NCBI GenBank assembly: GCA_951406725.2
Contig: OX597833.1
Location: forward strand, 44,082,001 to 44,146,000
Origin: Octopus vulgaris
Taxonomy: Eukaryota
Direction: 5' to 3'
DNA length: 64,000 bases
Position numbers and translations under genes: made by a program. Below the pieces are notes generated by a model. The model was not told the origin of the DNA. It worked only from the letters and a program-made list of their open reading frames with translations, and ran no database searches. Shown piece by piece: positions 22,520 to 48,257 of this stretch. The first letter of the stretch is position 1. Each line of letters opens with the position of its first letter.

Positions 22520-22852
22520 TTATTGAGATTGCAGATGTGTTTCCTTCAAGGAATATTGATTTTGCACACAAAACATTCTTAACTATAAAATGTCGATATG
22601 ATATAAAAAATTTTATTCAGTTTTTTCTCGTGCGAAATCACAGTGAAGTTGTTGTTCAAATGGATTATCTATTGAAGACAGGAAATTTTGTGATAGTAAC
22701 CAGGAGAAAGGGTTTTCACTGTACTCCACCTATATCACCTATAAGTAAGATAGGTGTGATTACCTGCTCGAAACCTTCTCCCTCTTGTGAGGATGCGACA
22801 TACTACAAATGTTTAACGAATGAAGGATCTTCAAAACCTAGAGTTGTAAGAG
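22520..22852 (+). CDS. gene A exon 2: Ig-like domain 1 (V/I-type), FIEIADVFPSRNIDFAHKTFLTIKCRYD...PSCEDATYYKCLTNEGSSKPRVVR
   Basis: tttttctatgcag|...G|gtcagt; 333 nt, phase 1-1, open; B-strand LTIKC and F-strand D-A-x-Y-Y-x-C motif, Cys spacing 73 aa. Confidence 0.88.
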
Positions 22853-22989
22853 GTCAGTTTACTCGTTCTATTTTTACTTCCGTTTCTTTTTTTGCACGTA
22901 TTCAATTCCATTATCATTATTTTTATTTCTATTGCGTGTTTCTATTGCACTATCGAACACAAGTTTCATCCAATCAGGTCAATTGCCCA

Positions 22990-23330
22990 GGCCAGCATGA
23001 CTACCTCTCTCCATCACTCCCGATCTTCCATTAGTATTTTTAGGCCTTCAACTTGGCATCCAACATCTTCTGCAAGCTGTTGTATATATGTCGTCCGTAG
23101 TCTTCCAGTCGCTGTGGTACCGTGATTTGCTGCCCACAACAACTCGTTACTAACAAGTTCTTCTTTACTTCTCCAGCAATGGTCAACAAAACCCAACGTC
23201 CGCACTAAGATGATTGATGAGAAAGTTGATGCATTCCCATATAACCTTTGTTTTGTTGGGAGCTCCCTCCATTAAATGTTGGGCACTGCACGTAACCTTC
23301 TGGTGTAGGTACCGTCCAGCATGCACTTAA
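22990..23330 (-). mobile_element. RTE LINE 3' fragment (copy B ~48395-48730)
   Basis: FVDHCWRSKEELVSNELLW..HG...GRLRTTYIQQLAEDVG..LMEDRE typical RTE C-terminus. Confidence 0.75.
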
Positions 23331-23797
23331 GTCCCTCTCTTTCTTTTCTCTCTTTTACTTATTTCAGTCATTTGACTGCGGCCATGCTGGAGCACCGCCT
23401 TTAGTCGAGCAAATCGACCCCGGGACTTATTCTTTGTAAACCCAGTACTTATTCTATCGGTCTATTTTGCCGAACCGCTAAGTGATGGGGACGTAAACAC
23501 ACCAGCATCGGTTGTCAAGCAATGATAGGGGGACAAACACACACACACACACACACACACACACACACATATATATATATATATATATATATATATATAC
23601 ATATATACGACAGGTTTCTTTGAGTTTCCGTCTACCAAATCCACTCACAAGGCATTGGTTGGCCCGGGGCTATAGCAGAAGAAACTTGCCCAAGATGCCA
23701 CGCAGTGGGACTGAACCCCGAATCATGTGGTTGGTTAGCGAGCTACTTACCACACAGCCACTCCTGCGCCTATTCGTTTTTGTTTTTTTCTTTTCAG

Positions 23798-43631: not shown

Positions 43632-44671
43632 TGTTATGGTTTGGCAAGTGCAGTATTTCTTGACCCACTTTGTGGGAGTGGCGCCTGCAGGTCTGGAGTC
43701 AAAACCGAAAGGCCTTTGTTTACTGGAAGAGTAATGGCTTTTGGAGGGACCTTTGGCCTTGTGCGGTCGATTGGAAGTCGTTCTAGACACCCCTTGAAGA
43801 AGAGGAAGAGGAATGTAGTGAGAAAGATAGAGTAAGGAATCTGAGAGCAGATAGAGAGGATGACAGCAGCAGCGCCGATAAAGATAGGGACATAGGACCA
43901 GGCGGAATAGAGAGAGTATAAGACTAAGAGACAGATTGAGGGTAGTGATAAAGACAGTTGGTATTCGGTCGTCAAAGCGAGTAGTTGGAATTTTGAGAGC
44001 AGGCGTTTGGGATGCAGGAGCTTGGCAAGTTGGAGTTAGCGGCACGGAGAGAGATATATACAGAGGAATAGGCGGCTGTTAGAGAGGAACTACAATATGG
44101 GACACTGGCTATTCAATTAGGAATTAAGGTATTTAATTGTATTGATACGTGCTACGATGTAAAAGAAAAAAAAGAAAGAAGAGAGAAAAAGAAGGACTCT
44201 GATGAAGTCGTTAAAGACATTGAACTGTATATGACTTGTTGATGTGTTTTGAAATAGAACTGTGTTTTCGGACGTATACCTTTGAAATTCTGATGTATTG
44301 ACCTTGTTGTGTCGTTACCGGACGGTTATATTGTTACTTGCATGTTTAAATGCTTTGATCTGTTGTATACCTGTATTGATTTGTTGTTTCCTTTAAATGC
44401 TTTGATCTGTGGTATACCCGTATGATGTATTGAGTTGTCACGTGCATGTCCTCCTTTAAATGTATCTGAAATGTATTTGATGTAACAATTGATTGTCATA
44501 AACTAGTTGTTAAATGTAAGCCAGTGGTGCCTTGCCTCTTTGTGTCTCTCTCGGTTGCCTCTGTATCTCTCTGTGCTGCTGCTGCTGTTGTTGCTGTCTC
44601 TCCTCTCTCCTCTTTGTGTTCCGTGGCGAACTTGCCCGTTCGGGCGAGCGACGGCGGGTGATTCCGTAACA
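43632..44671. mobile_element. probable solo LTR (Gypsy-like), copy-B specific, inserted in (TA)n
   Basis: Termini TGTTATGG...CCGTAACA, ATAT on both sides, absent from copy A at ~17910. Confidence 0.7.
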
Positions 44672-47600
44672 ATATATATATATCTTTCATCGTTTGTCTT
44701 TTACTTACTTCAGTCATTAGACTGCAGTCATGCTGGGGCACCGTCTTGAGATTTTAATCGATTGAATAGACCCCATTACTTATAATTTAAACCTGGTACT
44801 TATTCTATCGGTCTCTTTTGTCAACCACTCTAAGTTACGGAGACGTAAACACCAACACCAGTTGTCAAGTGGTGATGGGGAGACAAACACAGACATATAC
44901 ACATAGATAGATATATATACATATATACATAGACATATACATATATATACATATATATGCGACAGGCTTCTTTCAGTTTCCGTCTACCAAATCGCCTCAC
45001 AAGGCTTTGCTCAGACCTGAGGCTATAGTAGAAGACACTTGCTGAAGGTGTCACTATTAATCAAAAACAGCACATCATCTCTATACAGTCCACCTTTAAT
45101 ATCTGGAAATTTATTACTAAAATAAAATAGAATGTATAGATCAGAATCAGCAGATCCCATGGTAATGTCAAAAAATCATTGCTACTTTTTCTTGCCCAGG
45201 ACTTATTATCAAATAAACTAATCGATTTTTGAGTATATGTTTTTCTTAAGTATACACATATCAAGAAAAACTTTACTTAATGTACTCAGGTCAGATCAGC
45301 CTGGGAAAATTATTCTCACTTCAGAATTAAAAAAATTGTTTTCCTTGTGATCTTTTAAAGTTATCCTAGGCCTCATTGATACAAAAGTCTCTGTTCTATC
45401 ACCAAGGTCCTTGTCATTCATAATTTTCTTCGCTTCTAAGTTAATGAACCTTAAAACTTTTTACTTACTACTTTATAATTACTAGTAATCTCTTTCTTCA
45501 TTTATTCATGATATTTTAATAGATCCTAATCATATAAGTTTCATTGCTCCATAATTCCATTTTTTTCTTTTAAGATCACATAGTAGAGAATTTAATTTCT
45601 TTAAATGTTCAATTTCCCAGAGGGAATATTTAACAAATATAATATTCTTGACAATATTCCATAAATCGTCTTCAAAGGCCTCCAAATTGCGGTTTGGTGG
45701 TGGAAATTCCTTCGTCTGAAAGTTCTTTTAAAAAGTTCAGTATCTTTTTTATGAGGGTTATTTTCTTTTATAAAATCCATTTCATGGTAAAAAGCCACCC
45801 AACGGATTCTATGAATGAATTCAAAAGTCTTATTAATCAGATCCTTCATGAAATCCTTTCTAGGTGGAATAGGAAAGTCTTGTAAAGATAAGTGAATCGG
45901 TAATTTCTCCATTGAGACCAGCGAAAATATGTATTAATATTACTTAAATAATATACAAATATATTATTATAAATCAAACCAAGAAAAAGAACCATTTCAA
46001 TCAATATATAATAAACATTGATTTATGATGCTATTCTCCTCTAATAAACCAAGTAAATTTGTGTTACTTTCTTATTTACTAAAACTAAAGTTTATATTAA
46101 TACGAATAAATAAATTAGAACAATTATTATATATAATTATATATAATTTTGAACAATTTTGCATATATGAATGTTTCTTGTAGACCCTATAAAATTTAGC
46201 ATATATCATCATATGTTCTTTCGAACTTGTATATACACATAAAAACTAATGTGTACACTACGGTAGTAGTTGAATAATATTCTTAACGTAGCTTTTTGTT
46301 GCAGTTGGCGTCTTCCAAGTAGTCTCACTAATTCAGTTTTAATCCAAATCAAATTTAGTTTTTTAAAATTATGTTTGACTAGTGATAAGCTACATTTAGA
46401 CATAAAATACTTAAAGTCTGGTGCAGTAGAACAAAAGAGAAAAAGTGTATAGACCAAACTGTTTGACTGACGGGTAATAAAGCCCGACATCGGCATTTTG
46501 AATCCACACCATTCTTTTAACTTTGATCAATAATTATTATATTGATATTAATATGAAAGGAAATGTTAAAGGAATATATTGGTAAAGGTTTCGTAAAATG
46601 TTATCCATTAGAAAAAAGTTATTAATTTCAATTCACAAATTAATATTAAAGGGACTTGACATGTCCCTTTAAAAGGACTAGACATGTATGAACTAAACTA
46701 TTTCTTAGTTGTACACAATAAAAGACAAACGACAACACAAATCAATACAAAATGTTCTATTTATTTTCTTTAGTATAAATTACTTTTTATAAAAATTGAA
46801 TTTTTTTGCTTAACTTTTTGTAATTATTTTAACAACAAGATTATTTCATAAAAATATTAAAATTTATTTTATATTTTGTCTCTATGATCAGTATTCTATC
46901 ATGTTGTAGGGCTGTTCAGAAAAGGCAAATGACAAAAATTCTAATATTTTAAGACACTTGCTTCCCAGCTATATGGCTGGGAAGCAAGCGTCTTACAGTG
47001 ACTCCTAGAGAGAGAGAGAGAGAGAGAGAGAGAGAGAGAGAGAGAGAGAGAGAGAGAAAGAGTGAGTGAGGCAGAAAGATTTCGATAAACAAATGCATAG
47101 ATATGCATGCATATATACTAATGTATAGATGTATCAACCAATATATCTATATATATAAATTTGTCTCTCTCTTTCTATATATGATATACATGTATGTATG
47201 AATGTATGCATATATATATATATATATATATATATATATATATATATATATATATATATATATATATATATATATATATACATATATATACATATATTTA
47301 TATGTATATATGTGTGTGTGTGCGTATGTGTAAGTCCGTGTGTGTGTCCGTAAATACATACTTATGTATCAAGTTATTTTCAACTGAGACGTTAGAACCG
47401 TATTTAATACTTGAAGAGCTTAACTTGAGTGCATGTGCATATATTTACCACATTGATGACATCTATCACAGGTTTTTCCCATTGTGTTGATGAACTATTT
47501 TCTATGATTAATAAAACTGTCGGTATTTTGACGACACAGGTATGTTAGTATAATAATAAATATCAAAAACTATCTGCAAAGTTTTATTTGTGGATAGATG

Positions 47601-47924
47601 TAATCCGTATTCACAACAACCGTTATTTTTATTGGTTCTCTTTTTCCTACTTCTGTCATTCTTCTTCTTCTTCTTCTTCTTCTTCTTCTGCTTCTTCTTC
47701 TTCTTCTTCTTCTTCTTCTGCTTCTTCTTCTTCTTCTTCTTCTTCTTCTTCTTCGTCTTCTTCTTCTTCTTCTTCTTCTTCTTCTTCTTCTTCTTCTTCT
47801 TCTTCTTCTTCTTCTTCTTCTTCTTCTTCTTCTTCTTCTTCTTCTTCTTCTTCTTCTTCTATAGTTACATTTATATATTTTTTTATAACATCTATCTCTG
47901 ATTTATGTTTAATTTTCTATGCAG

Positions 47925-48257
47925 TTACTGAGGTTGCAGATGTGTTACCTTCAAGCAATATTGATTTTGCAAACAGAACATTCTTAACTATAAAATGTCG
48001 GTATGATATAGAAAATCTTCTTATGTTTTTTCTCGTGCGAAATCACAGTGAAATTATTGTTCGAATCGATTTTCAATTGAAGACACGAAGTTTTGCGGTA
48101 GTAACCAGGAGAAAGGGTTTTGACTGTACTGTACCTACATTCCCTGCAGATAAGAAAGGTGTGATTACCTGCTCGAAACGTTATCCCTCTTGTGAGGATG
48201 CGACATACTACAAATGTTCAGCAAATAAAGAATCTTCAAAATCTAGACTTGTAAGAG
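47925..48257 (+). CDS. gene B exon 2: Ig-like domain 1, FTEVADVLPSSNIDFANRTFLTIKCRYD...PSCEDATYYKCSANKESSKSRLVR
   Basis: ttttctatgcag|...G|gtcagt; 333 nt open; all 5 Cys conserved with gene A. Confidence 0.88.

Follow-up and report, generated by a model that had tools for sequence, protein, structure and literature searches.

Positive selection on the V-type immunoglobulin exon of a young tandem gene cluster in Octopus vulgaris

The exon encoding the outer, V-type immunoglobulin (Ig) domain of a small cell-surface protein family is under positive selection in Octopus vulgaris. The 64-kb stretch of DNA analyzed here, which we call the window, contains P1 and P2, two members of a set of seven young tandem gene copies. 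The gene has five exons, which encode, in order, a signal peptide, an IgV domain, an IgC domain, a linker, and a tail resembling a glycosylphosphatidylinositol (GPI) signal. Among the six intact copies, the V exon has a dN/dS of ∼4.3 (p = 3.7e-4). An initial annotation had proposed positive selection on this N-terminal exon, and the proposal was upheld with more sequences, with tree-free tests, and against a null that includes gene conversion.

Duplicated units and gene models

Self-alignment of the window, done with masking because microsatellites otherwise swamped it, revealed two copies of a ∼25-kb tandem duplicated unit on the plus strand. The first (P1, 12002..37120) has one whole gene inside it, and the second (P2) occupies 38573..64000; the two match in collinear blocks with identities of mostly 85-97%. 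Upstream of P1, an inverted repeat of ∼3.4 kb has its left arm at 8191..11575 (no strand assigned). This arm is a 96-98% inverted match to a right arm ∼135 kb downstream (G000:C20:44227154-44230533), so that four plus-strand copies are bracketed by inverted repeats. Within the left arm lies an orphan exon (10877..10956, minus strand), the terminal exon of a more distant member of the family; it is a 76% match to exon 5 and has an acceptor, an open frame, and a stop. Elsewhere in the cluster some copies lie in the opposite orientation, two of the seven carry frameshifts, and a 99.7% duplicate adjoins an assembly gap. Frameshifted and orphan copies occur in the genome as well.

All exons of both genes lie on the plus strand. 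The coding part of P1 exon 1 (14033..14078), a signal peptide ending at a phase-1 donor, combines an ATG, a hydrophobic run, and a GTAAG donor that are kept in all seven copies, and the N-termini of O. bimaculoides models agree with it; an in-frame ATG further upstream, with an open frame in six of the seven copies, means that the true start is not fixed. Exon 2 (22520..22852) encodes the selected V-type domain, an assignment that draws on codon tests, a structure model, and reads, and its splice to exon 3 is present in reads of runs X1 and X15; run X3 has no coverage of exon 2, which carries no weight as to expression. Exon 3 (23798..24103), which encodes a constant-type Ig domain containing a third Cys, has read junctions to exons 2 and 4. 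The 11-residue linker of exon 4 (31632..31664) is placed by its splice sites and by the sequence that follows exon 3 in an X15 contig, and exon 5 (32826..32905) encodes, as judged by hydropathy, a GPI-signal-like hydrophobic C-terminal tail and a stop, with no cytoplasmic domain. In P2, the signal peptide exon (40278..40323) was placed as in P1, and comparison with P1 and the other copies gave the V exon (47925..48257), the IgC exon (49804..50112; one inserted Cys codon common to P2, P3, and P4), the linker (57313..57345), and the GPI-signal-like tail with its stop (58698..58777). Contigs identical to P1 were found in read runs of two studies. The gene model and the splicing of the window copies are established by these observations.

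Selection on the V exon and the position of its variable residues

The contrast between P1 and P2 that the initial annotation had drawn at positions 22520-22852 and 47925-48257 was fully reproduced. Both V exons are 333 nt long with AG/GT boundaries in phase 1; 42 of the 333 bases differ, 35 of 110 whole codons differ by amino acid, and exactly one codon change (CGA/CGG) is purely synonymous. Codons 72 and 99 are double hit, and a silent step is probably hidden in each. By the Nei-Gojobori method, silent differences numbered 2.5 over 77.3 sites and replacement differences 39.5 over 252.7 sites (dS 0.033, dN 0.175; Fisher p = 7.5e-4). The divergence of ∼4% given for the downstream intron corresponds to 12 differences over its first 290 bases (5.2% across the first 480), and that of 1-2% in the 3′ flank to 1.0% over the 100 bases past the stop. 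As also described, the five Cys residues and the DATYYKC core are invariant, the replacements cluster in the four patches quoted, and exons 1, 4, and 5 are nearly identical (1, 0, and 1 residue differences, respectively). Exon 3, which the initial annotation did not cover, differs by 11 residues and one inserted codon, with 16 replacement differences over 232.7 sites and 4 silent differences over 70.3.

Codon tests were run on the six intact V exons, with the frameshifted M1 exon left out. Besides the whole-exon dN/dS, a site model gave p = 7e-8. Silent V-exon variants numbered 7, in line with the 7.8 that the intron rate predicts, whereas replacement variants numbered 66 against 25 expected; the intron rate came from five of nine noncoding segments, two being excluded for a nonhomologous P3 and two for shortness. 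Segregating sites comprised 51 of 204 0-fold positions versus 2 of 32 4-fold positions. The copies compared are 3-6% apart and mosaic (recombination clustering test, p = 0.016 for noncoding sites and p = 0.16 for all sites). In neutral simulations that included gene conversion, 0 of 147 runs reached a dN/dS of 4.3; the whole-exon test was somewhat liberal under such mosaic trees, with 11 of the 147 neutral runs nominally significant at the 5% level and showing omega > 1. The signal survived removal of P1, use of a star tree, and masking of 15 multi-hit codons. An outer domain that changes faster than neutral DNA would suggest that it binds a partner, for instance a pathogen, that itself changes quickly.

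Replacement excess is seen in other young pairs of the family, with replacement-to-silent ratios of 21:1, 17:2, 10:0, and 7:0, and between the transmembrane member and its own retrocopy (dN 0.28, dS 0.15, p = 0.044). Some subfamilies have dN < dS, and one near-identical set is without diversification. The confinement of rapid change to the N-terminal exon stood only in part: selection on the V exon held, but the IgC exon is not conserved either. Its whole-exon dN/dS of ∼1.6 is not significant, nor are the tree-free tests; the site model is significant, a result that is not firm, and a subset of IgC sites may possibly be under selection.

An AlphaFold2 model of the V domain (pLDDT 90.6; strands at 33-38, 42-50, and 55-61) has a V-type Ig fold, predicted as a beta-sandwich with C′ and C″ strands. 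The model matched antibody and T-cell receptor V domains at Z ∼12, with V domains making up the top 50 matches; values were Z 12.0 for a VHH chain (rmsd 1.9, 96 aligned positions) and Z 11.1-11.5 for the N domains of CEACAM1 and CEACAM7. A Foldseek search with the single V domain returned zero matches at E ≤ 0.001. The V exon has a Cys24-Cys97 core, additional Cys residues at 67, 82, and 89, and a sequon at Asn39. Across 26 aligned exons, C24, D91, and Y95 are invariant and C97 is found in at least 90%, giving the B-F cysteines and the D-x-x-x-Y-x-C motif; the core Trp of strand C is missing from the aligned exons, and a nearly invariant Leu36 stands in its place, making this an atypical V domain. 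Pfam recovered no family in the three window exons scanned and, among relatives, only weak matches to ig (4 of 26) and V-set (1 of 26).

The initial annotation had described the domain as membrane distal, and variation is indeed concentrated at its distal end. Variable positions make up 14 of 21 in the tip loops versus 5 of 22 in the bottom loops (p = 0.004), with loops mapped by secondary structure alone and the bottom loops carrying structural motifs that are conserved anyway. Variation also extends to strand C′ (7 of 9 positions) and strand C″ (5 of 7). The six copies are nearly invariant in the C strand, where 1 of 6 positions varies, in the CC′ loop with its glycosylation sequon (0 of 3), and at the outward F-strand residues. 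The tip-loop variation presumably recalls that of SIRP-alpha. The second domain aligns with constant-type Ig domains, and the extra Cys residues align with the positions of Cys80 and Cys171, which form a disulfide in the kappa light chains of rabbits (PMC10038998).

Anchors, relatives, and known systems

In the window genes the tail is present and conserved, and the same C-terminal tail is found in O. bimaculoides LOC106880715. The best 11-mer hydropathy of the window tail is 2.40, whereas eight of the nine other members that have a tail score 2.85-3.62, and its best 19-mer reaches 1.49, versus 3.4-3.7 in transmembrane members; a GPI anchor is probable rather than certain. With at least 48 V exons in the O. 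vulgaris genome, the family includes coexisting GPI-like, tail-less and apparently secreted, mucin-like Thr-stalk, and transmembrane forms, plus a retrocopy. A transmembrane helix is confined to a member at the cluster edge and its retrocopy. The tail of this member keeps the same end in both Octopus and Argonauta, which we take to be a PDZ-type motif, and inspection by eye showed neither an ITIM nor an ITAM in this tail. Because V-domain identity between the window copies and transmembrane-type members was only 36-38% among the matches listed, the window copies do not appear to be close decoys of a transmembrane receptor in the sense of CEACAM3.

Alike in Cys pattern, domain order, and tail, LOC106880715 and "uncharacterized" models of O. 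sinensis and Argonauta hians are true homologues by sequence comparison. These homologues are known as automatic annotations only, as "uncharacterized" or fused gene models. The family was not found outside octopods in sequence searches. Literature searches, which included 11 gene and protein identifiers, found nothing on it, and its genes may be listed by different identifiers in the supplements to published octopus genomes and transcriptomes; it is apparently an unstudied family of cell-surface proteins.

The genes had been likened to the VCBP, FREP, and Alr systems; the defining parts of each are absent, and the three serve as analogies only. Amphioxus VCBPs have germline V domains with hypervariable patches, two such domains being joined to a chitin-binding domain. 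The octopus gene shares a germline V domain with variable patches but consists of V, C, and an anchor-like tail; its second domain is constant type, and neither the gene model nor the Pfam scans include a chitin-binding domain. Snail FREPs are, like this family, molluscan, IgSF containing, and diversified, and belong to immunity (PMC11999971); no member examined here has their C-terminal fibrinogen domain, which appears neither in our gene model nor in the 29 aligned members scanned with Pfam. The Hydractinia Alr genes form a large cluster of unusual IgSF genes largely missed by Pfam, and in Alr1 and Alr2 the N-terminal V domain is both polymorphic and positively selected (PMC9546547, PMC8282982); the octopus cluster is similar in its many unusual IgSF genes, in being missed by Pfam, and in the selection on its N-terminal V domain. 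Alr proteins are described as mostly transmembrane, with an Fn3-like spacer, a tail, and a domain 1 without B-F cysteines (PMC9546547), whereas the window genes have the B-F cysteines, only an 11-residue linker, and neither a transmembrane helix nor a cytoplasmic tail. Furthermore, Alr variation is allelic and extreme, with allele-specific homophilic binding, while the variation reported here is among paralogues of one assembly.

Resemblance to B7 and butyrophilins lies in the two-domain V-plus-C fold, for which BTN3A1, bovine butyrophilin, and B7-H6 ranked high in Foldseek, but it is at the fold level only (9-14% identity), and the window genes lack a transmembrane or signaling domain. The Drosophila Dpr, DIP, and Beat proteins are also two-Ig surface proteins with lineage-specific expansion and a possible GPI anchor (PMC10084454). 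Their hallmarks include neuronal, combinatorial expression. None of them was among the profile-search matches, and none of Dpr, DIP, Beat, or Alr was among the fold matches listed, an absence that does not exclude them; unnamed arthropod Ig clusters scored 0.93-0.95 by language-model features. By analogy, the octopus family may work most like the CEACAM- or SIRP-type fast-evolving surface families. CEACAMs include transmembrane and GPI-linked members with diversifying selection on the N exon (PMC13278318, a preprint), and secreted PSGs also exist. The likeness extends to clustered genes in opposite orientations, an N-terminal IgV exon with raised dN/dS, mixed anchors, and signs of conversion. 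It does not amount to membership: the best match to a CEA sequence had E = 0.2 over 23 positions, the likeness in fold is common to all V domains, and the octopus V domain, with no sequence relationship found, retains the B-F disulfide and adds Cys residues. Nor did we find, at the V identities given above, the CEACAM arrangement in which a decoy V domain resembles that of a signaling receptor.

Proposed function and alternatives

We give an even chance to the proposal that the window genes encode an octopod-specific small surface protein whose V-domain tip binds a changing partner, most likely from a microbe or parasite. In this model the V and C domains make up a rigid rod, and a disulfide between V and C, of the kind known from the kappa light chains of rabbits, is its probable clamp. 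The rod would hold the tip (the BC, C′C″, DE, and FG loops) and the C′/C″ edge away from the membrane, and that surface would bind the ever-changing partner. New copies would come from duplication, loss, and segmental exchange, and selection would favor replacements at the tip. Because they have no cytoplasmic tail, the window copies may capture, coat, or act as decoys rather than signal by themselves, with such a tail retained by the transmembrane relative at the cluster edge. The partner would most likely be a molecule of a microbe or parasite, much as pathogen adhesins bind CEACAMs, and an arms race with a pathogen or parasite is our best guess, at about even odds.

That the pattern arose without selection, through relaxed constraint, a mutation hotspot, conversion from distant copies, or uncollapsed haplotypes, is largely refuted, and we regard it as barely credible. 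The mosaic copies, the two frameshifts, the gap next to the 99.7% duplicate, and the somewhat liberal whole-exon test would fit it, but silent exon sites evolve at the intron rate while variation is concentrated at 0-fold positions, the signal is robust to the perturbations above, and six of the seven V exons are free of stop codons and retain all five Cys residues. Specifically, a hotspot is rejected by the silent variants, haplotypes by the presence of seven copies (more than two haplotypes) and by P1-identical contigs in the runs of two studies, and conversion from a distant donor, the refutation named in the initial annotation, by silent divergence that is not proportionate and by the simulations.

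Selection could also come from other octopuses. Gamete surface proteins are well known for fast evolution, and the products may act in recognition on sperm, eggs, or reproductive epithelia, or mark individual identity on skin, with self/non-self discrimination or sexual conflict driving their diversification. This reading fits a positively selected Ig protein that is small and probably GPI anchored, as would expression in a restricted tissue. Among runs that bear no library or tissue label and of which none is registered as RNA, one reached exon depths in the thousands and two others that are possibly RNA had ∼0, contig depth being a poor measure of expression. We consider it somewhat unlikely, since at least 48 loci, many architectures, and frequent loss would be more typical of immune families. 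Less likely still is an adhesion identity code resembling Dpr/DIP, Beat/Side, or Alr, in which paralogues bind themselves or a matching partner on octopus cells and new specificities are selected. Positive selection and gene turnover as recent as those seen here are not known to be typical of the Dpr/DIP/Beat wiring families, and birth and death with dN/dS above 4 at distances of 3-6% would be unexpected for a wiring code; the near invariance of the C strand, the CC′ loop, and the outward F-strand residues also argues against it. In its favor are the conserved tail end of the transmembrane member in Octopus and Argonauta, the two-Ig, probably GPI-anchored layout described for Dprs (PMC10084454), and the variable C′ and C″ strands, given that selected sites of Alr2 lie on the C/C′ side (PMC8282982). 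Binding of environmental or prey molecules in mucus, in saliva, or at the sucker surface, with diet or habitat rather than disease driving diversification, would suit the apparently secreted members, the mucin-like stalks, and a family found in octopods only; with an anchor-like tail conserved in the window genes, we think this improbable.

In vertebrates, cnidarians, and snails, the main interfaces with pathogens and for self-recognition are marked by fast-evolving IgV clusters, and our literature searches found no such cluster described in cephalopods. The octopod family is missed by Pfam, yet carries a strong, localized signal of selection. In a broader and rather doubtful form of our proposal, octopods would have a germline repertoire of ∼50 variable IgV recognition proteins, diversified at loops like antibody CDRs and with a V-C clamp as in rabbit kappa chains, in membrane, GPI-linked, and secreted forms, that recognizes pathogens or individual identity. 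If true, this would mean specific recognition of pathogens or individuals in an animal group for which the literature searched describes no comparable system. The origin of anchored and secreted forms could be traced through the retrocopy and the cluster-edge transmembrane member, and the cluster provides concrete candidate genes and residues for how octopuses may recognize pathogens, mates, or self.

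A transcribed V+C gene duplicated within the window

Self-alignment of the window revealed a tandem duplication (~12002-37120 versus 38573-64000) whose collinear blocks are mostly 85-97% identical. Each duplicated unit contains a five-exon gene (P1 and P2) with a product of 265-266 residues, encoded in the order signal peptide, 111-codon Ig exon (V exon), 102-103-codon Ig exon (C exon), 11-residue linker, and hydrophobic tail. The V exons of P1 (22520-22852) and P2 (47925-48257) are 333 nt each, with AG and GT at their flanks. They differ at 42 bases, which change the amino acid in 35 of 110 whole codons, and only one codon change is purely silent, in agreement with the initial annotation, whose figure of about 4% for the ~290 bp of downstream intron was also reproduced (12 of 290 bases differ). 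Including silent steps inside double-hit codons, dS was 0.033 and dN 0.175 (Fisher p = 7.5e-4). A long TCT microsatellite lies just 5' of the V-exon acceptor in both genes (22330-22455 and 47660-47860).

Window positions 22465-24200 were compared with four read runs, whose records carry neither an RNA designation nor a tissue label. Contig depth in run X15 was in the thousands on exons 2 and 3 versus tens in most nonrepeat intron bins. The exon 2-exon 3 junction was found at the predicted GT..AG in three X15 contigs and in one contig of a second run, X1; P1 was matched without mismatch by the X1 contig and by one from X15, and an X15 contig extended past exon 3 to exon 4. The V+C genes are transcribed and spliced, and they lie in a birth-and-death cluster.

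Seven complete copies occur within 250 kb around the window, three on the minus strand (M1 to M3) and four on the plus strand (P1 to P4). Exons 4-5 are additionally present as a partial duplicate, and exon 3 as an orphan. Frameshifts affect exon 2 of M1 and exon 5 of P3; the one in P3 is a one-base insertion within a T run and could reflect a sequencing error. The plus-strand copies sit between ~3.4-kb inverted repeats (96-98%; window 8191-11575 and G000:C20:44227154-44230533) that carry an orphan terminal exon, which suggests an inversion. The nearest neighbor of a copy shifts along the gene (P2 and P3 are 0.4% different upstream of exon 1 and 6.9% in exon 2), and the DE-loop patch of P1 recurs in the disrupted copy M1; these patterns indicate that segmental exchange among copies has occurred. 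A recombination clustering test gave p = 0.016 for noncoding sites and 0.16 for all sites. A 100-N gap at G000:C20:44174669 (locus L044) lies beside an extra exon 4-5 pair and a 6-kb, 99.7% identical duplicate, possibly an assembly overlap.

The window also holds transposon remnants. PIF1-like helicase fragments (539-1176) are probably what is left of a Helitron, the element type being deduced from them. Two mariner-type DDE transposase remnants (5930-7130 and 20441-21640) are 92% identical, the second lying inside P1 intron 1. Of three LINE-like reverse-transcriptase remnants, those at 8314-8751 and 27206-27817 match RVT_1; the third (55282-55989), LINE-like by eye only, is missing from P1. 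At 62448-63662, duplicates of 110-455 bp in direct and inverted orientation (99% identical) suggest a young foldback element or a local assembly feature.

Positive selection on the V exon

The initial annotation had attributed the P1/P2 pattern to diversifying selection, and this explanation held when more sequences were added. Among six intact V exons, pN exceeded pS in 15 of 15 pairs. In codon models run with custom code rather than codeml, a single omega of 4.3 was estimated (p = 3.7e-4 against 1), and M2a, which placed 30% of sites at omega 10.8, was favored over M1a (p = 7e-8). Changing the codon frequencies, assuming a star tree, or removing P1 left omega at 4.1-5.2, and masking 15 multi-hit codons raised it to 9.3. 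Tree-free counts agreed: 51 of 204 0-fold sites segregate versus 2 of 32 4-fold sites (p = 0.011), and distinct variants comprised 7 silent (7.8 expected from the intron spectrum) and 66 replacement changes (25.0 expected). When neutral evolution was simulated over four discordant segments, omega never reached 4.3 in 147 runs (maximum, 2.7); 11 of 147 passed the nominal cutoff, so the omega test is slightly liberal. Because V-exon silent sites evolve at the intron rate, both a mutation hotspot and conversion from a distant donor, which would have brought proportionate silent divergence, are excluded as causes. The C exon gave omega 1.64 (p = 0.18) and a site-model p of 1.7e-4, with no significance in tree-free tests; this exon lacks constraint, and a few of its sites may be under selection.

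Structure of the variable domain

Pfam gave no match for the window exons. The V-exon structure predicted by AlphaFold2 from a 26-row alignment (pLDDT 90.6) resembled antibody and T-cell receptor V domains (Z up to 12.0) and the N domains of CEACAM1 and CEACAM7 (Z 11.1-11.5). The octopus domain has Leu instead of the usual core Trp. The model of a full-length O. bimaculoides homologue comprises a pair of Ig domains plus a terminal helix, and its top Foldseek matches were butyrophilins, antibody chains, and B7-H6. With loop sets defined from secondary structure, without coordinates, after the selected sites were known, 14 of 21 membrane-distal loop positions are variable versus 5 of 22 proximal ones (p = 0.004), and when the distal loops are extended by two residues on either side, to 37 of 110 positions, they contain 12 of the 17 selected sites (p = 8e-4). 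C' is variable at 7 of 9 positions and C'' at 5 of 7; strand C and the CC' loop are nearly invariant, and of 34 distinct family exons, 28 retain Asn39 in that loop. Adaptive change lies at the tip and edge of the V domain.

The PDB sequences best matched by the family profile, all of them weakly (E from 0.009), were for the most part light chains from rabbit or with engineered disulfides. In the two alignments displayed, extra light-chain cysteines line up with the fifth cysteine of V and the third of C; by our own numbering, these would occupy the position of the Cys80-Cys171 bond described for rabbit kappa chains (PMC10038998). The octopod pair may form a V-C disulfide clamp. Additional cysteines occur in the C domain of P2, P3, and P4 (49804-50112 in P2) and in the C'C'' loop of M3 (L003); if unpaired, they could allow dimer formation. 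Database models of cluster proteins (Octopus vulgaris predicted proteins) are fused or truncated. In the database models P0020, P0024, and P0043 the C domain is absent and V is joined to the tail region; if these models are real, the clamp cysteine would be free.

An octopod family and its possible partner

Genome searches with three single proteins found at least 48 distinct V exons. A big cluster at C20:43.64-44.73 Mb holds 30 of them, C20:0.86-1.10 Mb holds 12, C20:2.85-2.95 Mb holds 5, and C1 a single one. When 1.84 billion representatives were searched with a profile, 45 matches were returned (36 at E <= 1e-10); the ten whose source was checked came from Octopus (8), Argonauta hians (1), and, in the weak tail, a fish V-set protein (1). 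All named matches of further family searches were octopod. C-termini range from GPI-like tails and Thr-rich stalks to no hydrophobic tail, where some models may be incomplete, and a true transmembrane helix. The C1 gene (L088; G000:C1:165120493-165121401) is a retrocopy, without introns, of a transmembrane gene at the big-cluster edge (C20:43.61-43.66 Mb), with an open 303-codon frame and a frameshifted tail whose remnant ends similarly to that of the Argonauta homologue. The two are 78% identical in the V exon (dN 0.28, dS 0.15; p = 0.044) and 89-95% in other exons. In a comparison of 43 V exons, replacement:silent counts in further young pairs were 21:1 (p = 0.034), 17:2, 10:0, 7:0, and 10:3 (not corrected for multiple tests), and one clade (C20:1.0-1.1 Mb) had dN below dS. 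The anchored forms may plausibly derive from the transmembrane gene, although the tree is unrooted. Identical or near-identical proteins are encoded by L068-L071 (G000:C20:1.04-1.08 Mb) and by L027, L029, and L030, apparently through very recent amplification or homogenization, unlike the window subfamily.

The initial annotation had likened these genes to Alr, FREP, and VCBP, a likeness that does not extend to membership, as the family fails defining features of each: those given for Alr (PMC9546547, PMC8282982), those given for FREP (PMC11999971), and those that characterize VCBP. By analogy, the family would work most like the CEACAMs, judged by criteria in a preprint (PMC13278318), without being a member. 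Dprs and Beats share its layout (PMC10084454), and kinship was not detected. The IgSF members mentioned in the accessible part of an O. vulgaris hemocyte transcriptome paper (PMC4199593) are LRR-containing only, and no paper on the octopod family was found in literature searches of openly accessible main texts.

As for what the V domain meets, reproductive or individual recognition is a minority reading to be kept in mind, an adhesion code is rather unlikely, and prey or environmental ligands are improbable; that no selection acts at all is scarcely credible. A strict decoy version is weakened for the window genes, because identity between their V domains and the V domains of transmembrane-type members is no higher than 36-38%. 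The octopod IgV family is real, strongly selected, and apparently undescribed. Its products would stand as rigid V+C rods on the outer membrane, displaying a V tip and edge surface to a partner that changes, and the chances are about even that this partner is a microbe or parasite.
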